Positions 13,467 to 47,602 of a DNA stretch of 64,000 nucleotides are shown piece by piece. A model generated the notes under the pieces. It was given only the letters and a program-made list of their open reading frames with translations. It was not told the origin of the DNA and ran no database searches. The first letter of the stretch is position 1. Each line of letters opens with the position of its first letter. Both the position numbers and the translations under genes were made by a program. The DNA comes from a virus (lineage: Duplodnaviria > Caudoviricetes), in IMG/VR virus record IMGVR_UViG_2595698595_000001, positions 155,373 through 219,372 of that record, one strand, 5' to 3'.

Positions 13467-15395
13467 ATGAACGACAAAGATTTTATCGACGACCTAGATG
13501 CGTTATTATCCCCAAAACCTGAAAATGTTTCAACGGAAACTGAAGAAACAAAAGAACTTGTAGAAAAACGTTCAAGGATTCTTGAATGTCTTGATAAAGT
13601 AATCGATAAGCTATGCGAGAATCCTGGAATCTTACGAGAAAGAATCGAACAAACTCAGAAACCTATTATCGAAAAAGCTCTTAACGCTTATATCAAAGGT
13701 GTTAAGAATTACATTGTAGAAGCACCTACAGGTGCTGGTAAATCAATCATTGGATTACTTATTAACGAATCAATCTATCTTTACAACAATAAAGATATTG
13801 CAGCTTATACGTTAACACCTACAAAGATTTTACAGGATCAGTTAGATGAAGACAACAAACGTTTGAATCTTGGATGGGCTTTGTTAAAGGGTCAAGGTAA
13901 TTACATGTGTCTTGAAAACAATGAAAACTTTACGAAAAGAGCTTGCCATAAGTTAGCTATTTCTAAAGCAGCTCAATTACCTTGTGCTGAAACATGTGAA
14001 TACATTCAAAAACGTAAAGCTGCTATTTTGTCACATAACGCTGTATTATCTTACGCTTATTGGTTATCTGCTATGAATTACATGTATAACATGCTTGGAG
14101 ATAATTCACCATTTCAACCGAGAGAAGTTACAGTATTTGATGAATGTCATATGTTAGCTGATACAGTTCAAAGTATGTTTCAAGTTGAAATATCGAATCA
14201 AGTTCAGGATAGAATCGTTAAGCTAATTTCATTCTATGAATCTGTTGAAAAAGATGTTTACAAGCTTGAAAGAATGTTTGGACTCACTAAAGATTTCAAG
14301 AAATGTTTCGATCATCTTTTCAAGATTACTAACGAACAATCATTGAAAGATGTTTACGATACTATGCTAATGACTACAGCATATATTCATAGGATTTCGA
14401 ATATGTTCTTAGACTTCATTCAAGAATATTTTCCTAAGAATACTAACCTTTGGTCTGTTGGTCAACAAGAATTCGATAAGAACTTTGAAAGATTCGCATC
14501 AGTTTCTTCAAACATGAAATTCTTCTTATCAAATAACAAAGATATTGAAAACATTGTTGCAGATAAAACAGTTTTAGATGATGGTACCGTAGTTCTACTA
14601 TTTAGAACTCTTAACGAATCTAGTTTAATGGCTAGACATGTTCATAAGTATACACAATTCGCAGTATGGACTTCAGCTACATTAGGTGGACGTAAAGGTT
14701 TAGAATCTTGGGCTGAACAAAATGGTATTACGAATTACGAATATACTATCATGGAATCTAATTTCGATTTCGAAAATTGTCCTATCAATATCTGTTCACC
14801 TACTATTTCAATGTCATTCAAAGATAAGGCGAATAACATGAATGCTTTAATGATGCGAATCATGACTTTGATCAATTGTCACGAAGATGAACGTGGTATC
14901 ATTCATACTGGTAATTTCGAAATAGCTAGAAATCTTAAGACTCGTACTGAAAAAGGTAATGACAGATTCATTTTCTATAACAATTCATTTGAAAAAGCTC
15001 ACGCTATCGAAGAACTTAAACGTTCTAAAAATGGTATTATCGTTGGACCTTCGTTATCAGAAGGATTGGATTTGAAAGATGATTTAGCCAGATTCGCTAT
15101 TCTCGCTAAAGTACCTTATCCGTCACTAGCTGATTCATTGAACAAATTAAAACTTGAAAGAATTCCAGGATGGTATGATTGGCAAACAGTTGTAACTGTT
15201 CAACAGCAGTTAGGTAGACACGTAAGACATAAAACGGATTGGGGTACAACTTATATGTTAGATTCGGGATTCGAAAGAGTTATAACTAATTCTACATTCC
15301 CGAATTACATTGCTAACCGTTTTACAAAAATCAATGTCAATAAATTAGTAACAGATTTCCAAAATCAAGATTCAGATTTCGATGACTTATACTAA
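13467..15395 (+). CDS. DinG/XPD-family SF2 helicase
   Basis: EAPTGAGKS Walker A, LKGQGNYMC plus Fe-S-type Cys residues, FDECH motif II, SATL, EGLDL, QQLGRHVRHKTDWG motif VI. Confidence 0.9.
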   Translation: MNDKDFIDDLDALLSPKPENVSTETEETKELVEKRSRILECLDKVIDKLCENPGILRERIEQTQKPIIEKALNAYIKGVKNYIVEAPTGAGKSIIGLLINESIYLYNNKDIAAYTLTPTKILQDQLDEDNKRLNLGWALLKGQGNYMCLENNENFTKRACHKLAISKAAQLPCAETCEYIQKRKAAILSHNAVLSYAYWLSAMNYMYNMLGDNSPFQPREVTVFDECHMLADTVQSMFQVEISNQVQDRIVKLISFYESVEKDVYKLERMFGLTKDFKKCFDHLFKITNEQSLKDVYDTMLMTTAYIHRISNMFLDFIQEYFPKNTNLWSVGQQEFDKNFERFASVSSNMKFFLSNNKDIENIVADKTVLDDGTVVLLFRTLNESSLMARHVHKYTQFAVWTSATLGGRKGLESWAEQNGITNYEYTIMESNFDFENCPINICSPTISMSFKDKANNMNALMMRIMTLINCHEDERGIIHTGNFEIARNLKTRTEKGNDRFIFYNNSFEKAHAIEELKRSKNGIIVGPSLSEGLDLKDDLARFAILAKVPYPSLADSLNKLKLERIPGWYDWQTVVTVQQQLGRHVRHKTDWGTTYMLDSGFERVITNSTFPNYIANRFTKINVNKLVTDFQNQDSDFDDLY

Positions 15396-15666
15396 AATCA
15401 AAGAACAATTCAAAGATCGATACAATCAGATTTGTATCGATCTAATGGAAATGATAATCGAGGAAGTTCTATACATAAACGTTTCTATAAACGAATCCGA
15501 TCAAATGGAAAGCATTTTAGATTCTATGGAACTATCAGCTTTAAGTTCTGTAATCGATAAATACTATCAAGTTTCGATAAGTAATACTGAAATAAGTTAT
15601 AAGACTTTCGAAGAGTTAGTATGTCGAATCATTTACTTACAAGTAACACCACAGTCAAGGTTATGA
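15382..15666 (+). CDS. acyl carrier protein-like protein with intact DSM motif
   Basis: ILDSMELSALSSVIDKYYQVSISNTEISYKTFEELV aligns by eye with ACP [36 protein letters not shown]. Confidence 0.6.
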   Translation: MTYTKIKEQFKDRYNQICIDLMEMIIEEVLYINVSINESDQMESILDSMELSALSSVIDKYYQVSISNTEISYKTFEELVCRIIYLQVTPQSRL

Positions 15667-15923
15667 AAAAGACACATAGTGAAATCATCTCTACTATAAA
15701 TTCAGATTTAGAAGATTTTATGCGATCTAATAGCATGAATACTAGATTTTCGTATAATGAATATCTTTATAGACTTTGGAGAAGAGAAGATTACGAAGCT
15801 TTCTGTGAACATGTAATACATAAGTACGATGGATATAACATCAAACGTCAGTTTTTCATGACTATGAACACACTTATAACTAATCTAGCGAACAGGGAAA
15901 TTATTAAACAACAAAATTCTTAA
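15663..15923 (+). CDS. divergent ACP-like paralog (likely start 15663)
   Basis: ATGA overlap with upstream stop; similar length and helix pattern; no Ser at the attachment position. Confidence 0.35.
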   Translation: MKKTHSEIISTINSDLEDFMRSNSMNTRFSYNEYLYRLWRREDYEAFCEHVIHKYDGYNIKRQFFMTMNTLITNLANREIIKQQNS

Positions 15924-15928
15924 AAACT

Positions 15929-16192
15929 ATGATATCAAAGAAACGTTATCAATCAAAATATGACGAAATCAGGTTAGACTTGAATTTCTTCTTAGTAACA
16001 GAATTAGATCAGTCTAAAGACTTACAGGATTCTGATGTTCTAAACAAAGTATTAGATCATATGGAAATTGCTGATTTGAAAGACTATTTAGAATCAGAAT
16101 ATAACTGTAAAGTTGGAATCGATGCTATGACTTATCATGATCTTATCGATCTTCTAACTTTAAGATACTTCGTAAATATAGATTCCGAATAG
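15929..16192 (+). CDS. ACP-like paralog (Ser replaced by His)
   Basis: VLDHMEIADLKDYLESEYNCKVGIDAMTYHDLIDLL. Confidence 0.55.
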   Translation: MISKKRYQSKYDEIRLDLNFFLVTELDQSKDLQDSDVLNKVLDHMEIADLKDYLESEYNCKVGIDAMTYHDLIDLLTLRYFVNIDSE

Positions 16193-16194
16193 AC

Positions 16195-16506
16195 ATGGAA
16201 AATTTCAAAGAAGTTTGCGATTATCTAAAGTCTGAACTAAAAGAAGTATGTTCTTTAGATTACGAAATATATGCTTACGAAACTCTTTCAGACTTTATCG
16301 ACGATTATGATATCTTGAATTTCATTTCAATAATCAAACATAAGAATCGAGGTTTATGTAATATCGAAGTATCGGATTACAGGAAACTGACATTAACTGA
16401 TATAGCGAACAATATTCTATATAATAAAAATAGATTGGAACTTTTCGATCTATTTTCTAAAGCTAGTAAAAGAATGAGAGAATCTTGTAAAATCTTGTAC
16501 ACGTAA
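16195..16506 (+). CDS. ACP-like paralog (Ser replaced by Asp)
   Basis: FIDDYDILNFISIIKHK...EVSDYRKLTLTDIANNI. Confidence 0.45.
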   Translation: MENFKEVCDYLKSELKEVCSLDYEIYAYETLSDFIDDYDILNFISIIKHKNRGLCNIEVSDYRKLTLTDIANNILYNKNRLELFDLFSKASKRMRESCKILYT

Positions 16507-16567
16507 ACATAAAATATCAAGTTTAGTATAATACATATAATTCAATATATAAATTCAGACAAAGAAC

Positions 16568-16834
16568 ATGACAGAACCTATCATTACAGTGTTGTCTAAA
16601 AACGGTTGCGTTCCCTGCGAAACTGTTAAAGCTACACTTAAATCGAGTAACATAAAGTTTGAAGAAATCAACTTATTCGATAACGCACATATTGCTACCA
16701 AATTCAAAATTCGAAACGTACCAACTGTAATGTTTACTAATAAACCATTAACAGATGATACAGCTATAGAAGTTTCGGAAAAATTCACAGGTCCTGGAAC
16801 ATTGGACAAAATTCAACAATACGTTTCTAAATAA
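16568..16834 (+). CDS. nrdH: glutaredoxin-like NrdH redoxin
   Basis: CVPC redox motif, NVPTV cis-Pro motif; first gene of the nrdHIE cluster. Confidence 0.75.
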   Translation: MTEPIITVLSKNGCVPCETVKATLKSSNIKFEEINLFDNAHIATKFKIRNVPTVMFTNKPLTDDTAIEVSEKFTGPGTLDKIQQYVSK

Positions 16835-17205
16835 TGACTATCGTTTATGACTCAAGGACTGGGAATATTGAACGATTCATTAACAAAGTAAAAGAACAAA
16901 CTGGATGGACTTTCGTTAAGATTGATAAGAATCTTGTCATCGATGAGAAAGTCCATCTTGTTACTTATACTACAGGTTTCGGACACCTCCCAAATCCTAC
17001 AAAGGCTTTTCTAGCAAATCAATCTAATGTAAACAATTTACTTTCTGTATCAGTAAGTGGTAATCGTAACTGGGGACCTAATTTCGGTAAGGCTGGTGAT
17101 ATCATCTCAGATGAATACAACGTTCCGTTACTATTGAAATTCGAATTATCTGGTAATCCCTCTGAAATAGAAGCATTCATTGAAAACATTCAAAAATTCT
17201 CTTAA
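16834..17205 (+). CDS. nrdI: flavodoxin-like class Ib RNR assembly protein NrdI
   Basis: YDSRTGNIERF, TYTTGFG, SGNRNWGPNFGKAGD, KFELSG. Confidence 0.95.
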   Translation: MTIVYDSRTGNIERFINKVKEQTGWTFVKIDKNLVIDEKVHLVTYTTGFGHLPNPTKAFLANQSNVNNLLSVSVSGNRNWGPNFGKAGDIISDEYNVPLLLKFELSGNPSEIEAFIENIQKFS

Positions 17206-17211
17206 TACAAT

Positions 17212-19794
17212 ATGAACAATCCTTGGATTTTACTTAACAACCAGCTGTTAAATCGAGCTGAAGGAACAATCGATTTAGAAAAAGACAAAGAAGCCGCGAG
17301 ACAATTCTTCCTAGGATATGTAAACAAGAATATGGTTTGGTTCCATTCGTTACATGAGAAACTATGTCATTTGGTTAACGAAGGTTACTATTTCGATATG
17401 TTTCAGAATTACGAATATGAAGAAATCAAGGAGGTATTTTCATTCGTATATTCTAAGAAATTTCGTTTCCAATCGTATATGGCTGCATTCTTATTTTACA
17501 AGAACTATGCAATGCGTGATGGAGAAACAGATCAATTCTTTGAAAGATATGAAGATCGTATAGCTACAGTAGCATTATATACTTCAATTGATCTTAAAAC
17601 TGGTAAAGGTGATTTACAAAAAGCTTTAGCACAAGCTGAAATCATGATTAATCAGGAATATCAACCTGCTACCCCGACATTCTCAAACGCTGGAAAACTT
17701 AAAGGTGGTGAATTGGTATCATGTTTCTTAGATGAAATCGGTGATTCTAAAGTTGGAATATCCAAATCTATTCAAGCCGCATTGGATTTATCTTCGATGG
17801 GTGGAGGTGTATCGTTTAACGTATCTAAATTACGTGCACGTGGTGAAGCTATTAAAGGAATCGACGGAAGAGCTTCAGGTGTTTTACCAGTAATGAAAAT
17901 CCTTGAAGATGCTTTTTCATATGCTAATCAATTAGGACAACGTCCAGGTGCTGGAGCTGCTTATATCAATATCTTCCATTCAGATGTTGAAGAATTTCTA
18001 GATTCTAAGAAAATCAACGCTGACGAAAAATCACGTCTTAAATCGCTTTCGTTAGGTGTTATCGTTCCTGACAAATTCATGGAATTAGCTGAGAAGGATG
18101 AACCATTTTATGTTTTCTATCCATATACAGTTAAGAAAGAATACGGTAAACATCTAGATGATTTGGATATCGATACAATGTATTCCGAATTAGTTTCTAA
18201 TCCTAATGTTAAGAAACGTAAGTTAAATGCTAGACGTATGTTAACTAAGATTGCACAAGTTCAGAAAGAATCAGGTTATCCATATTTCTTCTTGAAAACT
18301 AATGCTAACGAATATCATCCTTTGAAGAATTTGGGAGACGTTAAGTTTTCTAATTTATGTTTTACTGGTGATACTTTAGTTAACATAATTACTAGAGATG
18401 GTCAATATGTTAAACGTACTATTGAAGATTTATCTACAAATTTCGATCATGAAAAAGAAGGATGTATAACAGTACAGGGTGCGTATTGGTCCGATGATAA
18501 AGGTCAATGGGACTATGAATGGTTTTATGCTACAGCTTTCCAGACAGGTTGGAAAAAAGTAATAAAACTTGAACTATCTAACGGTGGTAATATAAAATGT
18601 ACACCCAATCATGAAATAGCTACAATTCATGGAAAGTATGTCAAGGCTTCAGAATCGATTGGTTCTATTTTAGCTTCAGATTCTAATAATGTATATGTAA
18701 CTGATATTAAAGAATTAAACGAATGTGTTCCAGTGTACGATTTGAATGTACAAGGCCCCCATAATTTTACTATTTCTGTAAGTGATAACGAATCGGTTTT
18801 AGTTCATAACTGTACCGAAATCATGCAATATTCAGAAGTGTCAGAATACAATGATTACGATAAGCAACATAACGATAAAATCAATTACGGTATTTCATGT
18901 AACTTAGGTTCTCTAAACATCGCAACTGTTATGAAGAATTCTAAAGATACTAATCGTTTCGAAAGGATCATAAGTACTGCAATGGATTCTTTAACTCATG
19001 TAACTGATCGAACTAACATTGCTGCTGTTCCTGCTATTGCTAGAGCTAACAAACATTTCAGGTCTGTTGGATTAGGTGCTATGAATTTACATGGTTATCT
19101 TGCACAAAATGAAATCATGTTCGAATCTGATGAAGCTTTAGATTTCGTTAATGTATTCTTCGGAATGGTAAATTACTATTCATTGAAACGTTCCATGGAA
19201 ATTAGTAGAGAACGTGATTGTGACACTTTCGAAGGATTTGATGAATCTGAATATGGAAATGGTAAGTACTTTGACAGATACATAGATAACTTCAATCTAG
19301 AACCTAAATTCGATAAAACTAGTGAGTTATTCGAAGGTATCGAAATTCCAAGTTTACAAGATTGGGTTGACTTAAAGGATGATGTAATGAATTACGGTAT
19401 CTATCATGCATATCGTTTAGCTATTGCACCTAACCAGTCAACAGCTTACATTATGTCAGCCACTCCTTCGATAATGCCAATATCTGATCAAGTTGAAGTA
19501 CGTGAATATGATCATTCGACAACCTTTTATCCTATGCCTGGAATGAACGATGATAACATGTTCTTCTATAAATCAGCATACGATATGGATCAGTTTAAGG
19601 TATTACGTTTAGTATCAGTTATTCAACGTCATATCGATCAAGGAATTTCATGTATTTTACATACAAATTCTGAAGATGATACCGCATTAATGGCAAGATA
19701 TTACATCTACGCTTGGAAGATGAAACTGAAATCGTTGTATTATACACGAACTCGTAAATCCTCTATTGACGGATGTATATCCTGTTCAGCTTAA
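17212..19794 (+). CDS. nrdE: class Ib ribonucleotide reductase alpha subunit, intein-containing
   Basis: PATPTFSNAG, LVSCFL, QLGQRPGAGA, SNL-intein-CTEI, CNLGSLN, LAIAPN, C-terminal CISC. Confidence 0.95.
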   Translation: MNNPWILLNNQLLNRAEGTIDLEKDKEAARQFFLGYVNKNMVWFHSLHEKLCHLVNEGYYFDMFQNYEYEEIKEVFSFVYSKKFRFQSYMAAFLFYKNYAMRDGETDQFFERYEDRIATVALYTSIDLKTGKGDLQKALAQAEIMINQEYQPATPTFSNAGKLKGGELVSCFLDEIGDSKVGISKSIQAALDLSSMGGGVSFNVSKLRARGEAIKGIDGRASGVLPVMKILEDAFSYANQLGQRPGAGAAYINIFHSDVEEFLDSKKINADEKSRLKSLSLGVIVPDKFMELAEKDEPFYVFYPYTVKKEYGKHLDDLDIDTMYSELVSNPNVKKRKLNARRMLTKIAQVQKESGYPYFFLKTNANEYHPLKNLGDVKFSNLCFTGDTLVNIITRDGQYVKRTIEDLSTNFDHEKEGCITVQGAYWSDDKGQWDYEWFYATAFQTGWKKVIKLELSNGGNIKCTPNHEIATIHGKYVKASESIGSILASDSNNVYVTDIKELNECVPVYDLNVQGPHNFTISVSDNESVLVHNCTEIMQYSEVSEYNDYDKQHNDKINYGISCNLGSLNIATVMKNSKDTNRFERIISTAMDSLTHVTDRTNIAAVPAIARANKHFRSVGLGAMNLHGYLAQNEIMFESDEALDFVNVFFGMVNYYSLKRSMEISRERDCDTFEGFDESEYGNGKYFDRYIDNFNLEPKFDKTSELFEGIEIPSLQDWVDLKDDVMNYGIYHAYRLAIAPNQSTAYIMSATPSIMPISDQVEVREYDHSTTFYPMPGMNDDNMFFYKSAYDMDQFKVLRLVSVIQRHIDQGISCILHTNSEDDTALMARYYIYAWKMKLKSLYYTRTRKSSIDGCISCSA
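18358..18810 (+). mobile_element. mini-intein (151 aa) in NrdE
   Basis: Starts CFTGDT, block B CTPNHEI, ends VYDLNV...LVHN before the +1 Cys of CTEI; too short for a homing endonuclease. Confidence 0.9.
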
Positions 19795-19865: not shown

Positions 19866-20543
19866 ATGAAAACACTTACTAAGATATACGAAAGTCTTTC
19901 ATAGATTAATGTCGGTGATTATGTAAAACTTACAGGATATGATAAAGATTACAGAGAAGCTGTAAGAGATTCTATAACACAAAATTTACTTGGTTTCGAA
20001 TTCAATGGTGATAGAATTGCATGGGTAGCTGCTGCTAAATACATAAACGATGCTGTAATGCAAGTTACAGGAATAGAAGATTCTAATTGGGGTGTTCGTG
20101 CTAATCTTGAATTGTCGACAGGTGTAAGTCCTGAGAAACGTAGAATGTCTATCCCTTTAACATTCTTATCACCTGCTTCAAAATCGGAAGTTAAATCATG
20201 GTATGACATGAAATTCGATGACTATATCAAAGAATATGGTACACCTAAAATTCTATCAGAAAAAGAATTTAAAGAAAGACAATCAGTACCAAGTTCTAAA
20301 ATGTTCCTAGTAACAAAACCATTTACGTTTAAAGGTAAACATGGTCAACTTAAATTCAGTAAGAATGATATAGCTAAATACTGGAATCAGAGTGGTAGTT
20401 TGGGTGACTTATTTACAGTAACTAATGTTACCACTGATAAATCTGATTCTAAAATGGAAACCGGTTATTCTGATACTCAAAATACTTCTGACAATCTTAA
20501 AGAATTGACTTATAAAGATTACGTAAAGTACATAAATAAATAA
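19866..20543 (+). pseudogene. putative internal head protein gene with in-frame TAG at codon 13 (pseudogene or read-through)
   Basis: ATG 19866 MKTLTKIYESLS*INVGDYVKL... continues in frame into the tracked ORF 20058-20543; TAG at 19902-19904. Confidence 0.65.
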
Positions 20544-20563
20544 TTGTTTTAGTATTTTTAAAA

Positions 20564-20607
20564 GAAACCCTCGGAAACTGAAACTTTCGAGGGTTTCGTA
20601 GTATAAT
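20564..20607 (+). repeat. hairpin-promoter element, type A
   Basis: 40 nt identical to 4573-4612, ending TAGTATAAT. Confidence 0.9.
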
Positions 20608-20635
20608 ATATACTAATAACAAATATATTTCAACT

Positions 20636-21340
20636 ATGAATACTATTTACAATCACCCATGTACTAATGAAGAACTTTTAACTATCGCTCTAGACAGAGT
20701 TAACTCTAACATTAAAGGAAAATGGCTTCATGTTTCAAGTCAATTCAATAACTTTGACAATGATTTTGAATACTATCTAGAAAAACCTATCTATACAGAA
20801 TTCAAAGACAAATACGGAAACATTAATACTGGTTATATTACTGTAATCGAATGTGAGAAATCACTATTCATTAATAAGTGGGAATTCAGTTTATTAGTAA
20901 TATCTTCAGAAGGTCATGACAAAACTGTTACAAAAACGAATTCAGGTTTTCATTATACGAAAACTGATAACATAAAAGATCATTATCTTTTCAATTCTAG
21001 AAATGCTGTTGTAAGCTGTTCTAAACGTAACACTTTAAACAAAGCTGATTGGGATTTAATCGTTAGCATAACTAAAACTTTGAAAGTTGACGATTTCTTA
21101 AATTCTGGAAATGTATCACCTGAAACTAAACGTGATATAGTTAATAACAGAATTACATCAGATGGTGGAAATGTTACCTTTCATGATCATGATGATTTGA
21201 TTCTTTTCACAGAACCGGATAATAGTAAGGTTTACACTTACTTAGATGTTGAACCTTCTGAAATGTTTCCAGATGGAAAACATAAGTTTCTAGCATCTAA
21301 CGAACAAATAGATATCGCTTACAATAAAATCGTAAAATAA
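20636..21340 (+). CDS. hypothetical protein
   Basis: Single gene bracketed by two hairpin-promoter elements. Confidence 0.65.
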   Translation: MNTIYNHPCTNEELLTIALDRVNSNIKGKWLHVSSQFNNFDNDFEYYLEKPIYTEFKDKYGNINTGYITVIECEKSLFINKWEFSLLVISSEGHDKTVTKTNSGFHYTKTDNIKDHYLFNSRNAVVSCSKRNTLNKADWDLIVSITKTLKVDDFLNSGNVSPETKRDIVNNRITSDGGNVTFHDHDDLILFTEPDNSKVYTYLDVEPSEMFPDGKHKFLASNEQIDIAYNKIVK

Positions 21341-21343
21341 ATC

Positions 21344-21387
21344 AGAAACCCATGTAACTGAAACTTACATGGGTTTCTTAGTATAAT
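21344..21387 (+). repeat. hairpin-promoter element, type B
   Basis: AGAAACCCATGTAA-CTGAAAC-TTACATGGGTTTCT then TAGTATAAT. Confidence 0.9.
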
Positions 21388-21416
21388 ATTTCTTTATCAA
21401 TGGTATATTAAACATC

Positions 21417-21791
21417 ATGAAATTCGAAACAGTTACATTAGGTATTTCAAATAAGGAAATCGAAAGTCTAAAGACTTATAATATAGACCCTCAAACAGAA
21501 CTTAAACGTAGACTTCTTGAAGAATTTGCAGCAGAGTTAGCTAATACTGAATTAGATTTGACAAAGGATCATATAGTCAAACTATCAGTTGAAGAATCTG
21601 AATATGTTAACTTTCATCACTTACAAGTTGGCGAAACCTATCATGTTGTAAATGGTTGTTGGGATTTCAAAGTTCTTGAATTACATGAAAAGTCTGTTAA
21701 GATTCTTATATACGATGGTGATGACACTGAAAAGACTTGGACTAGAAATGAATTTTCTTCTAACAACGTAACATTATCATCAAATGATTAA
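21417..21791 (+). CDS. hypothetical protein
   Basis: ORF after promoter. Confidence 0.6.
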   Translation: MKFETVTLGISNKEIESLKTYNIDPQTELKRRLLEEFAAELANTELDLTKDHIVKLSVEESEYVNFHHLQVGETYHVVNGCWDFKVLELHEKSVKILIYDGDDTEKTWTRNEFSSNNVTLSSND

Positions 21792-22095
21792 ATTCGTAAA
21801 ATCTTTATTCGAACCTAAACCGTTCACTATCGAAACTCTTATAGCTGATTCAGACGGAACTTGGAATGTTTCTGTATCAAGATTATCAGAAAACTCTTAT
21901 TCGTATAAAGCTGCTGGATATTTCTTTAGTTCACATAATAACGAAATAATAGATATTGACAAAGTTAAGAAAGTCATGAAGAAATCTAGATGGGGTTATC
22001 TAGCAATTGAACGTGACGGTAAGATGAAAACATTTACAGATTCTGATAAAATTCGAGAGTTTCTTAAATCGAATGAACATTTAATTCAAAGATAA
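21784..22095 (+). CDS. hypothetical protein
   Basis: Overlap-coupled ORF. Confidence 0.6.
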   Translation: MIKFVKSLFEPKPFTIETLIADSDGTWNVSVSRLSENSYSYKAAGYFFSSHNNEIIDIDKVKKVMKKSRWGYLAIERDGKMKTFTDSDKIREFLKSNEHLIQR

Positions 22096-22442
22096 TGAAT
22101 ACAATATACTTTAGAGGTAAAGACATTTTAACAGGATCATGGGTTTACGGTTACTACTATAAACATAATGAAGTTCATGGTATATTTACACCCGGTCGAG
22201 GTTCTGAAAGAGTAACTTTAGAAACTGTTGGTCAACTAGTTTACGAATTAGATGATACTATGGTTTTCGTTGGTGATATTATGACTAATCCGAGAGGTCA
22301 GAAATTTGAAGTCGTAATATACGACAACTTACCTAGCCTTAAACCAATCGATAGACAACAGTATAATGCTATGTCTAACGGTTATATGCAGAACAAAACA
22401 TTGATTGGAAACAAATTCGATAATCCTGAATTACTTAAATAA
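22095..22442 (+). CDS. YopX-family protein
   Basis: IYFRGK..G.WVYG, ETVGQ, VFVGDI, IGNKFDNPELL. Confidence 0.8.
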   Translation: MNTIYFRGKDILTGSWVYGYYYKHNEVHGIFTPGRGSERVTLETVGQLVYELDDTMVFVGDIMTNPRGQKFEVVIYDNLPSLKPIDRQQYNAMSNGYMQNKTLIGNKFDNPELLK

Positions 22443-22675
22443 TGAAACCAGAAAATTTCGATATAGAAAAAGTAAAAGAACATTTACAAGGTACTTGCAT
22501 GTCTTTAGATGAAGGCTTATCAGACTTATATCCAGACATGGATCAGTTTGACTTAGAAATGTCAGATCATGAAGCTATAGACATGGAAATGTTTAGATGT
22601 GATGGTTGTGGATGGTGGTTTGATAACTCAGAAATGGGTGAAGAAGAATGTCAAGATTGTGAAGAAACAGAATAA
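22442..22675 (+). CDS. small acidic zinc-finger protein
   Basis: CDGCGWW...CQDC. Confidence 0.6.
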   Translation: MKPENFDIEKVKEHLQGTCMSLDEGLSDLYPDMDQFDLEMSDHEAIDMEMFRCDGCGWWFDNSEMGEEECQDCEETE

Positions 22676-22677
22676 AA

Positions 22678-23205
22678 ATGAAAAACGAATCAAAAACTAT
22701 ATCAGCTAAAGCTATAGCAACTGGAAAGGTTTATCATTCAGGTGAAAATAAATGCATCAGACTAAAAGATTTAACAATCGGGGAATTAGCTGACAAACTT
22801 AAAACTTCTTCAGATTTTCGAGATAATTCAGAATCGTATCATTTTCGCTTGTTCTCTGATAACGAAATTGAAATGATAAGGGATAATTATCCACATTTAT
22901 TAGAAGGTCATGAAGTTATCGACATACCCTTAGAAGTAGGTTACTGTGTGATTGATAGAGAAATTGATCAGTTATACAAGATTTATAGAAATGATATAAT
23001 ATCCGAAGAAGATGGAGAACTTTATACAGTTGTTAGAAAGTATAACGGTTCTAATCTTAAATCGATTATGAACGGATTTTCTTCTGAATTGTATTTTGTT
23101 AAATCCTCAAAACTTGAATTCATTTCTACCGAAGAACTTAGAAATCTTAGAAATCTTGGATATCATATGAAACATGATCGCGGTGATTCATATCTAGTTT
23201 GCTAG
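22678..23205 (+). CDS. hypothetical protein
   Basis: ORF in cluster. Confidence 0.6.
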   Translation: MKNESKTISAKAIATGKVYHSGENKCIRLKDLTIGELADKLKTSSDFRDNSESYHFRLFSDNEIEMIRDNYPHLLEGHEVIDIPLEVGYCVIDREIDQLYKIYRNDIISEEDGELYTVVRKYNGSNLKSIMNGFSSELYFVKSSKLEFISTEELRNLRNLGYHMKHDRGDSYLVC

Positions 23206-23236: not shown

Positions 23237-24232
23237 ATGACCGATAAAAAATATACTGCTGTAAACTGGAACAATCCAGATAACGATTATGCCCAAATGT
23301 TCTGGGATCAAAATATTAAACAATTCTGGATCGATACAGAATATGTACCTTCTAACGATATAACTTCTTGGAAGTCGTTAGAACCTGAAATGAAGAAAAC
23401 ATACATGAGAGCTTTAGGAGGTCTTACATTACTTGACACTTTACAAAGTCATACAGGTATGCCTAAGATCATAGATCATATCGACTCTCTACAAAACAAA
23501 GCTGTATTATCGTATATGTGTATGATGGAAGCGATACATGCTAAATCATACTCAACGATATTTACAACAGTAGCTAATAAAGATGAAATCGATGAAATCT
23601 TTAGTTGGATAACTACAAACCCTCAGATTCAATATAAAGCTAGTGTTATCGATTCTTACTATCAAAAGTTAGCAAATCCTGAAGTCGATCCAAAGGATTT
23701 ATTCATGGGGTTAGCTGCATCAGTAATGTTAGAATCATTTCTATTTTATTCTGGATTCTTTTTACCATTATATCTTTCTGGTAACGGTAAGATGAAAGCT
23801 TCAGCTGATATCATTAAGAAAATCGTAGCTGATGAATCTATTCATGGTGTATTCGTTGGATTACTTGCACAAGAAGTTTACAACACTTTCGATGATACTA
23901 CAAAGAAAGAATTAAAAGATGAACTGTTAAGAACTATTTACAGTTTATACGAAAACGAAGCTAAGTATACTGATTACATTTATACCGAAGTTGGATTATC
24001 TTCAGATGTAAAAGAATACGTTAAATACAATGCTAATAAAGCTTTGATGAATCTTGGATTCGATCCAGAATTCACACATGGTGAAATAAATCCAATCGTA
24101 TTGAATGGACTTAACACCGAAACAACTCAACATGATTTCTTTTCTATGAAATCTACTAATTACGAAATGGCTATTAATGTAAAACCAGTACATAATGAAG
24201 ATTTCGAATTAGACTTAAGCTGTCCAATCTAG
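23237..24232 (+). CDS. nrdF: class Ib ribonucleotide reductase beta subunit
   Basis: AVNWN, QFW, LTLLDTLQ, MEAIHAKSYS, LESFLFYSGF, DESIHG, HDFFS. Confidence 0.95.
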   Translation: MTDKKYTAVNWNNPDNDYAQMFWDQNIKQFWIDTEYVPSNDITSWKSLEPEMKKTYMRALGGLTLLDTLQSHTGMPKIIDHIDSLQNKAVLSYMCMMEAIHAKSYSTIFTTVANKDEIDEIFSWITTNPQIQYKASVIDSYYQKLANPEVDPKDLFMGLAASVMLESFLFYSGFFLPLYLSGNGKMKASADIIKKIVADESIHGVFVGLLAQEVYNTFDDTTKKELKDELLRTIYSLYENEAKYTDYIYTEVGLSSDVKEYVKYNANKALMNLGFDPEFTHGEINPIVLNGLNTETTQHDFFSMKSTNYEMAINVKPVHNEDFELDLSCPI

Positions 24233-46225: not shown

Positions 46226-46298
46226 AGTAACTTTGCATAATTCTTTAGTACTATTCTATCATACTAAAATGATAATTTAATACAAAGAATTATGCAAA
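46226..46298 (+). promoter_or_regulatory. promoter AGTAAC-N14-TAGTACTAT within a 15-bp inverted repeat covering the next start codon
   Basis: 46232-46246 TTTGCATAATTCTTT is the exact reverse complement of 46284-46298 AAAGAATTATGCAAA. Confidence 0.7.
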
Positions 46299-47602
46299 AT
46301 TTATTTAAAGACTTTGGTTTAGAAATTGTTGATAAAGAAAACATTTCTAACATCAATTTATGTAAAAACACTGAAGATGTCAGAGTTAAGCCAGTTATCC
46401 TAATAACTGGTATTTCGAGTCAAATTGGTAACGACTTAGCTAATCTGATACAATCTTCCTGGAAGCCAAAATTTCTAAGTGATTCTAAAGAACTGGAAGC
46501 TTTCAAAAATCATCCATCTGAAAGCGGTACTTACGCTGAAAAGACTAAGGAAAAATTCATAAATTATGTACATTCCTTAGAAACATCGAAATACTCTTTC
46601 TTTGACATATATTGTACATCGTCCAGTGAATTAGATATGTCAGATATAACAGAATTAAGAGAGTATATCAATAGAAGAAAACCGGACTATATCATTAACT
46701 TAGCAGCATTTACTAACGTTCAAGCATGTGGTACTAATCCAAACGCTTTTAAAGTAAATACTAAAGCTGTTGAAGTTTTCGCTGAATACATTAGAAATAA
46801 CAAAGCTAAGTTGTTACATGTTTCAACAGATTTCGTTTACAATAAAGATACTAACAGAAACGATAAAGGTTTAATTCTTAGTGAAACTATACCAACTGGA
46901 ATTCCATGCAATCATTATGCTATTCAGAAAATGCTTTCTGAAGCTATTATAGATAATGCTGTTAACAAACCGGAATGTAAAGGTGTTGCTGAAATCGTAA
47001 GAGTTTCCCATTTGTTTTCAACTCATAAAAACAATATCGTAAAGTCATTGACTAGAAATCTGATTAATCGATCTGTCACTAAAGCTGTTAGTGATAATAG
47101 ATTCGTTCCAACTTACTCAGAAAATGTTGCTAAATTCATAGCAATGTCGATATTAACTTTCCATCCTAATAAAGATTATAAGGGTAAATGCTATCCAGAA
47201 TGTTCGAACTTTGTGGAGAATATTGAACCTATGTCTACTAACGATTTGACATTAATGATTAAATCCGTTATCAAAAACATCGATGAAAATACAGAAACGT
47301 TAAGGAAAAAGGATGATGGTATTTCTATTGGGTCAGTTCTTAGTGTTACTAGTGATTTTTATGTTTCTGAATCGGAATTACCTGAAATGTTACCAACTGA
47401 TACAGCTTTAGCTAGGGATTGTAAATATTTCACGCCTTATCCGGATAGTGATAATTCCACTAAAGAAATAAACAAATTGATCGATAATCTTATGCTAAAA
47501 TATGATTATGTTTCATGTTCTGATGCTATTAAAACAGTAACTGGTATAGAATATGCAAATCAATTAAATTCAATAACTTTACAAATGCAAATAAAAGGAT
47601 AA
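46292..47602 (+). CDS. RmlD-like NDP-sugar reductase (extended SDR)
   Basis: ILITGISSQIG, IINLAAFTNV, HVSTDFVY, YAIQK (YxxxK), VRVS, PTY. Confidence 0.8.
   Translation: MQNLFKDFGLEIVDKENISNINLCKNTEDVRVKPVILITGISSQIGNDLANLIQSSWKPKFLSDSKELEAFKNHPSESGTYAEKTKEKFINYVHSLETSKYSFFDIYCTSSSELDMSDITELREYINRRKPDYIINLAAFTNVQACGTNPNAFKVNTKAVEVFAEYIRNNKAKLLHVSTDFVYNKDTNRNDKGLILSETIPTGIPCNHYAIQKMLSEAIIDNAVNKPECKGVAEIVRVSHLFSTHKNNIVKSLTRNLINRSVTKAVSDNRFVPTYSENVAKFIAMSILTFHPNKDYKGKCYPECSNFVENIEPMSTNDLTLMIKSVIKNIDENTETLRKKDDGISIGSVLSVTSDFYVSESELPEMLPTDTALARDCKYFTPYPDSDNSTKEINKLIDNLMLKYDYVSCSDAIKTVTGIEYANQLNSITLQMQIKG

Follow-up and report, generated by a model that had tools for sequence, protein, structure and literature searches.

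The window analysed here comprises bases 155373-219372 (64,000 nucleotides) of the 219,372-bp IMG/VR virus record IMGVR_UViG_2595698595_000001, which is rated complete by CheckV. Within it four small genes, here called g1 to g4, stand in a row between the gene of a Helicase_C_2/DEAD helicase and nrdH, which is followed by nrdI and nrdE (Table 1). A first-pass annotation made from the letters of the DNA alone had placed four plus-strand open reading frames (ORFs) between these neighbors, and both the reading frames and the setting were confirmed. The same annotation had interpreted the four products as one diverging family of proteins resembling acyl carrier protein (ACP), with the phosphopantetheine serine kept in a single copy. 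For g1 and g3 that interpretation held firmly in sequence comparisons and for g4 it is suggested by a predicted fold, while for g2 it is not supported.

The genes of the row are tightly packed. The 3′ end of the helicase gene overlaps the start of g1 by 14 nt, g1 and g2 are joined by an ATGA overlap, and gaps of 5 nt and 2 nt separate g2 from g3 and g3 from g4; no terminator-like sites were found within the row. The ESM Atlas contains the 86-residue g2 and the 103-residue g4 letter for letter, and therefore the source's own gene calls agree with these boundaries. The isoelectric points (pI) of g1, g3 and g4 given in Table 1 compare with a median of 4.15 for carriers and of 6.64 for the small ORFs of the phage.

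Table 1. Genes and sites in and next to the row, in window positions
Feature	Position	Strand	Length; pI	Assignment or basis
Rad3/XPD/DinG-type helicase	13467-15395	+	642 aa	Pfam Helicase_C_2 (3e-19), ResIII, DEAD
g1	15382-15666	+	94 aa; 4.39	Divergent relative of stand-alone carrier proteins, judged by sequence; serine kept
Ser48 codon of g1 (TCT; motif ILDSME)	15523-15525	+		Serine column in 34 of 34 reference carriers
g2	15663-15923	+	86 aa; 7.88	Small helical protein, no carrier link found
g3	15929-16192	+	87 aa; 4.48	Paralogue of g1 by sequence, His at the carrier-serine position
His44 codon of g3 (CAT)	16058-16060	+		Serine column (38-row MAFFT and other alignments)
g4	16195-16506	+	103 aa; 5.16	Predicted carrier-like fold (residues 1 to ~82) and C-terminal helix
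nrdH	16568-16834	+		Pfam Glutaredoxin
nrdI	16834-17205	+		Pfam Flavodoxin_NdrI
nrdE with intein	17212-19794	+		Pfam RNR_N, Ribonuc_red_lgC, Intein_splicing

Relationship of g1 and g3 to carrier proteins

Similarity among the four products was measured with phmmer against the 744 ORFs of at least 40 aa in the phage genome. g1 and g3 matched each other at 22-23 bits (E 4.2e-6), with 23% identity over 74 residues by BLASTP, whereas no pair involving g2 or g4 exceeded 5.7 bits (in-genome E at least 0.8). A MAFFT alignment of the four proteins contained two invariant columns. The pentapeptides on which the first-pass annotation had built its comparison are all present (LDSME at residues 46-50 of g1, WRRED at 39-43 of g2, LDHME at 42-46 of g3 and IDDYD at 35-39 of g4). 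Of the ACP-like pattern that it described in all four genes, the part concerning g1 and g3 stands; its extension to g2 and g4 was partly a matter of the eye, because their pairwise scores and profile ranks are no better than chance. By these comparisons g1 and g3 are real paralogues.

Profile searches connected this pair to carriers. The Pfam PP-binding search (PF00550) that had been proposed as a check found g1 (E 0.0033), below the cut-off of the family, and gave no match for g2, g3 or g4 at E≤10. Searched in six frames with the same profile, the whole genome gave a single match, at the place of g1 (E 6.8e-4). We also used an independent hidden Markov model (HMM) of 34 carriers, mostly AcpP, from which g1 and g3 were excluded. 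The carriers were gathered by a family search in 31 genomes with L030 omitted, and comprised 32 proteins from 30 Acidobacteriota genomes together with two further proteins, P0003 and P0005; a search that started from P0003 had yielded no more than P0005 and a single genome locus. When 126 entries were ranked with this HMM (122 phage ORFs of 50-140 aa, and the four proteins entered again under their own names), g1 was first (E 0.0012, 12 bits) and g3 second (E 0.018, 8.3 bits), the next entry having an E of 0.27; g2 and g4 were outside the top 14. Using hhalign on the same entries, g3 ranked 1st, g1 5th, g4 62nd and g2 87th.

Against the PDB, g1 alone gave two matches, both of them carriers (E 0.24 and 1.4). 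A profile made from g1 and g3 found nine sequences at E≤10, the best being 2lki (E 0.012), which we take to be a carrier. Five are carriers by the name given by the depositor (E 0.065-0.67), namely PltL twice, two ACPs, and PigG or a putative peptidyl carrier protein. The alignments place the LDSM of g1 on the LDSM of 2lki and the LNSM of PltL, and the 77-residue chain 6cxt was aligned in the same register. When the same profile was compared with 1.84 billion representative proteins, four had an E≤0.001: g1 and g3 themselves, P0003 (E 7.3e-5) and one repeat protein. P0003 is a true member of PF00550 (39.2 bits) and is 25% identical to each of g1 and g3 over the full length with few gaps. The helical-repeat protein is regarded as spurious, and a match of the profile to a 185-aa ORF (E 0.0036), a GmrSD_N protein, was judged in the same way. 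Among the NCBIfam models, one for an AmcB-type ACP was the sole match of g1 (E 0.027).

Remote homology of g1 and g3 to PP-binding carriers is thus backed by independent profiles that agree in register, the link of g3 to carriers running through g1 and the profile tests. Since g1 remains below the gathering score, we refer to the two proteins as distant relatives or look-alikes of carriers and not as curated members of PF00550.

The serine site

In a 38-row MAFFT alignment, the column of the phosphopantetheine site holds a serine following D, H or N in all 34 reference carriers; the same column holds Ser48 in g1 and His44 in g3. The motif (D/N/H)-S-(L/M/I) at the start of helix II was present in g1 only, as D47-S48-M49. 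For g2 and g4 the register depended on the method: with MAFFT the column is occupied by Tyr44 in g2 and by Ile40 in g4, compared with Arg41 and Asp37 in the first-pass annotation. Under neither register is there a serine at the site in g2 or g4.

Structure predictions for g4 and g2

No sequence relatives of g4 were found among the ORFs of the genome, in the PDB, in phage records by tblastn or in a word-index protein search. Its ESM Atlas model has a predicted local distance difference test score (pLDDT) of 0.78 and a predicted template modelling score (pTM) of 0.71. Among the nearest structures in the Atlas, the cluster carries PP-binding in 8 of 10 rows, with template modelling (TM) scores of 0.58-0.66 over residues 1 to ~82; residues 83-103 form an extra helix in the model. 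From this prediction g4 is probably carrier-shaped. The first feature match of g4 in the Atlas was a cluster of ribonucleotide reductase R2 fragments (0.91); a relation to NrdF was rejected, as BLASTP against the NrdF of the phage gave an E of 65, which is chance.

The AlphaFold and Foldseek comparison suggested in the first-pass annotation was carried out on both g2 and g4. For g2 a confident model found no carrier; for g4 the model was poor and the search empty. The single-sequence AlphaFold model of g2 has a pLDDT of 82.7, with helices at residues 5-22, 31-39, 44-54 and 60-84. Foldseek with this model gave no PDB match at E≤0.001 and no carrier among 59 matches at E≤10. In a VIA search of 48,161 chains the highest Z was 5.6 and the top 50 contained no carrier; none was listed in a second look. 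The Atlas model of g2 is poor (pLDDT 0.56), and its 10 neighbor rows are ten different things, none of them a carrier. Sequence searches of the PDB with g2 and g4 returned noise only, and PHROGs gave no match below E 0.001. With a confident model free of carrier matches and a near-neutral pI, the assignment of g2 to the family is not supported, and a carrier-like topology, for which nothing speaks in the models, is unproven for it.

A stretch of g2, LYRLWRR at residues 35-41, is reminiscent of the LYR motif known from small proteins that bind ACP. The protein also has an N-S-M at 23-25, but both features lie away from where they would be expected. In the LYR-motif family the motif is N-terminal. 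A classification of g2 as an LYR-motif protein was rejected, as there was no Complex1_LYR match at E≤10 and the motif follows the first helix.

Comparison with known carriers and phage ACPs

The type II stand-alone peptidyl/acyl carriers of PF00550 known from secondary metabolism, represented by PltL, PigG and 2lki, resemble g1 and g3 in their length of ~90 aa, their acidity and their order of elements: helix I, a long loop, (I/L)LDSM where helix II begins, and Y/F-x-(I/V)-x-(I/V). The phage proteins differ from them in that g1 falls below the Pfam cut-off, g3 has His in place of Ser, and both genes lie in a phage replication block of a genome that has no phosphopantetheinyl transferase (PPTase), adenylating enzyme or further partner.

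AcpP, whose motif is DSLD, shares with g1 the character of a small acidic helical protein whose serine site lies where helix II begins. The motif of g1 is LDSM instead, and no AcpP model in NCBIfam was matched at E≤1. AcpP is a hub on which many proteins dock, including SpoT, MukB, LpxA/D and HlyC. The first-pass annotation had proposed that all four genes form one diversifying family of AcpP mimics, which would titrate AcpP-docking host proteins or defence proteins that require ACP. Such a family would explain why three of the four proteins are carrier-like, why two or three lack the serine and why g1, g3 and g4 are acidic, and action by binding would suit a phage without carrier-using enzymes. 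However, g2 resembles carriers neither by sequence nor by model and is not acidic, and the HMM built mostly from AcpP gave g1 only 12 bits. In addition, the nearest carriers are of the LDSM type (2lki, PltL, PigG, the AmcB-type model and P0003), with the fatty-acid ACP not among them, so that mimicry toward the AcpP partners SpoT, MukB, LpxA/D or HlyC is without specific support. We consider a single family of AcpP mimics unlikely.

ACP genes are already known in phages. Published reports describe duplicated ACPs in an island of Flavobacterium jumbophages (a paper of 2026, PMC13573597), an ACP near spanins that was identified by liquid chromatography-tandem mass spectrometry in Eneladusvirus phages (PMC7760394), and, from mass spectrometry of a Vi01-like phage, a protein named 'putative acyl carrier protein' (PMC10892097). 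In a table of a fourth paper only an 'acyl carrier protein reductase' appears, and it is not relevant to g1-g4 (PMC5977210). As far as these texts extend, the published cases share with the present row carrier-like genes in large phages, once in duplicate, and Bacteroidota-type hosts. They differ in setting, the published genes adjoining those for lipoproteins, secreted proteins or lysis, whereas g1-g4 adjoin helicase and Nrd genes. In the passages concerned, the published reports do not take up the state of the serine. Full-text searches of the literature, with subscription journals outside their coverage, brought up no work on phage proteins that resemble carriers without the serine or that mimic ACP. 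What is found here is a tandem orphan set in which one copy bears the serine and one or two copies lack it.

Partner enzymes and relatives

A Pfam scan (E≤1e-4) covered 293 of the 294 crude ORFs of the phage genome, the remaining ORF lying across a locus border. No PPTase, adenylating enzyme, ketosynthase, condensation domain or acyltransferase was found among them, which extends to the genome scale the earlier remark that no PPTase and no fatty-acid synthase, polyketide synthase or nonribosomal peptide synthetase gene lies near the row. Six-frame searches of the genome for PF01648 (ACPS) and PF00501 (AMP-binding) also gave nothing at E≤1; the same searches were positive in 10 and 12 of 14 control genomes, respectively. 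Since most of the scanned phage ORFs could be given no Pfam family at E≤1e-4, enzymes not seen in the scan are possible.

A single cellular relative of the nearest carrier has readable neighbors. In the Acidobacteria metagenome-assembled genome L022 (139-5236), the nearest LDSM-type carrier (23.5 bits to PP-binding) lies between genes for a hexapeptide acyltransferase, an AsnB-type amidotransferase and a GT4 glycosyltransferase. This neighborhood is possibly a carrier-dependent cluster for glycan modification.

These observations bear on the possibility that g1 is a working carrier served by host enzymes or by unrecognised phage enzymes, for instance in the acylation or aminoacylation of a sugar or small molecule, with g3 and g4 as decaying duplicates that have no role. 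A canonical D-S-M site is kept in g1, the L022 carrier has the neighbors just described, dTDP-sugar genes and glycosyltransferases are present elsewhere in the phage, and ORFs outside every Pfam family leave room for the enzymes. Yet the L022 context is a single case, no sugar gene adjoins the row, and the PPTase, adenylating enzyme, ketosynthase and condensation domain are missing from the scan. Moreover, the reading frames of g3 and g4 are intact and their row is tight, a condition in which decaying phage genes seldom remain. We therefore give this explanation a small share of the probability.

Relatives of the row in other phages were also sought. With g1, g3 and the helicase as queries, no close relatives were found in IMG/VR. 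Nine distant loci obtained from the helicase alignment, with 575 ORFs, contained nothing like g1-g4 at E<0.3. The copy number across related phages, a check proposed in the first-pass annotation, came to no PF00550 match at E≤1 in any of seven related records, which were PTm1, pT24 and five IMG/VR records that are fragments (12-76% complete). There was no megablast match of window positions 15000-17000 to phages, in 50,697 phage records tblastn with g1 and g4 reached no E below 0.09, and a word-index protein search with g1 and g4 returned only the query itself.

Other features of the phage genome

The phage is T4-like by Pfam scan, having a Gp20-type portal, a Gp23-type capsid protein and a T4-type baseplate protein. 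Its G+C content is ~31%, and 288 of the 294 crude ORFs are on the plus strand. The helicase is 33-34% identical to those of the Tenacibaculum phages PTm1 and pT24, the best among 494 phage records, and four Cys are invariant in the alignment of these helicases. Because of this closeness to the Tenacibaculum phage enzymes, a marine Bacteroidota host is likely.

NrdE (860 aa) has an insertion inside its barrel domain with an Intein_splicing match at residues 440-476, probably a mini-intein, and nrdE is separated from nrdF (23237-24229) by six small ORFs without a Pfam family (window 20058-23202). There are two thymidylate-synthase-like genes, at genome positions 16974-18302 (443 aa) and 135221-135925 (235 aa). 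In the longer protein, profile positions 1-238 are spread over residues 2-382, and it therefore holds a large insertion. The shorter protein is divergent (E 2e-11) and could be an enzyme of the pyrimidine hydroxymethylase type. A family-B DNA polymerase is divided between two ORFs (L008:7441-8901 and L008:11329-12540; genome ~83.4-88.5 kb), the exonuclease and the start of the polymerase being in one and the rest in the other, with ~2.4 kb containing four Pfam-less ORFs between them.

A dTDP-sugar pathway is represented by an RmlB-like dehydratase, RmlC epimerase, RmlA nucleotidyltransferase and RmlD-like reductase. The dTDP-sugar and glycosyltransferase loci are at genome ~137.8-140.3 kb, window 46292-47599 and L010:8556-11497. 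Three tandem Glyco_transf_7C glycosyltransferases, taken with the dTDP-sugar genes, suggest that some component of the phage or of its host is modified with sugar. A probable fibre or surface-binding protein of 1857 aa (L008:1211-6781; genome ~77.2-82.8 kb) has 16 DUF285 repeats (883 bits) and matches PKD weakly. Two adjacent short proteins have GmrSD_N (DUF262) as their only domain (L008:16544-17733; genome ~92.5-93.7 kb), and one of them is the GmrSD_N protein that the profile of g1 and g3 had matched spuriously.

Discussion

The explanation we favor, at somewhat better than even confidence, is that the row encodes three proteins of carrier fold, g1 and g3 by their sequences and g4 by its model, together with an unrelated small helical protein, g2, and that the carrier-like proteins without a serine are binding modules. 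Duplication of a very divergent stand-alone carrier of the LDSM type would have given rise to g1 and g3. As the phage has no PPTase, g1 could be converted to the holo form at Ser48 only by a phosphopantetheinyl transferase of the host. g3, with His44, and g4, with Asp36, Asp37 and Asp39 at the site and no serine near, would be unable to carry the prosthetic group. Intact, tightly packed, acidic and carrier-shaped genes that lack the serine are most likely to act by docking, and we infer that g3 and g4 are pseudo-carriers that occupy or bridge proteins on which a carrier normally docks. Competition with a host carrier for the partner of that carrier is one possible action, and the bringing together of partners another. 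g2 would be a separate small protein, and may be a partner of g1 since the two are translationally coupled through the ATGA overlap. The four genes are probably expressed together with the helicase as part of a block for replication and nucleotide metabolism, and their position would suggest expression early or midway in infection. The LDSM type of the nearest carriers and the neighbors of the L022 carrier offer a lead as to the docking target, which may have its place in secondary or glycan metabolism and not in fatty-acid synthesis.

Several results weigh against this explanation. The score of g1 with PF00550 was 18.1 bits at E 0.0033, compared with a gathering cut-off of 20.8 bits, and taken singly the carrier matches are all marginal, with E values from 0.003 to 1.4. 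When g3 alone was searched against the PDB, none of its four matches was a carrier. The fold of g4 comes from one language-model structure, and TM scores of 0.58-0.66 over ~80 residues are modest. With a pLDDT of 52.7 the single-sequence AlphaFold model of g4 was unusable, and Foldseek with it returned nothing, as expected for such a model. Finally, the carrier-using enzymes are absent from the Pfam scan, and all four proteins are orphans.

Part of this evidence could also be explained if the likeness to carriers reflected remote ancestry or a common helical shape, the genes being ordinary fast-evolving early ORFans that dock on no carrier partner, such as anti-restriction proteins or acidic mimics of nucleic acids. 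Marginal matches and orphan status would be expected of such genes, models of small helical proteins resemble many folds at modest values of TM or Z, and the row lies within a DNA-metabolism block. But the carrier signal came from five independent look-ups that all agree in their register on the serine, the sole real non-self match among 1.84 billion proteins is a PF00550 member, and the structural neighbors of g4 are nearly all carriers, unlike those of g2. We judge this explanation the least probable of those considered here.

A more elaborate form of the docking proposal, which we put forward as a doubtful one, is that the row is a graded set of carrier-shaped proteins. One member could be loaded with phosphopantetheine, and the His and acidic copies would imitate an empty or a phosphate-bearing host carrier. 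As a set, with g2 perhaps as an adaptor, they would capture a carrier-dependent host enzyme or a defence protein early in infection. If true, this would make them a new class of proteins, based on the fold of carriers, with which a phage counters its host.

The proteins described here are orphans from a single uncultured phage genome, and the membership of two of the four is weak or absent. Carrier proteins are hubs on which many bacterial enzymes must dock. Several phage proteins of carrier shape, most of them apparently unable to carry a group, would point to these docking surfaces as something that a phage attacks or uses in taking over its host. For experiments on this question the sister pair of g1, with its serine, and g3, with histidine at the same place, would provide a ready-made natural contrast.

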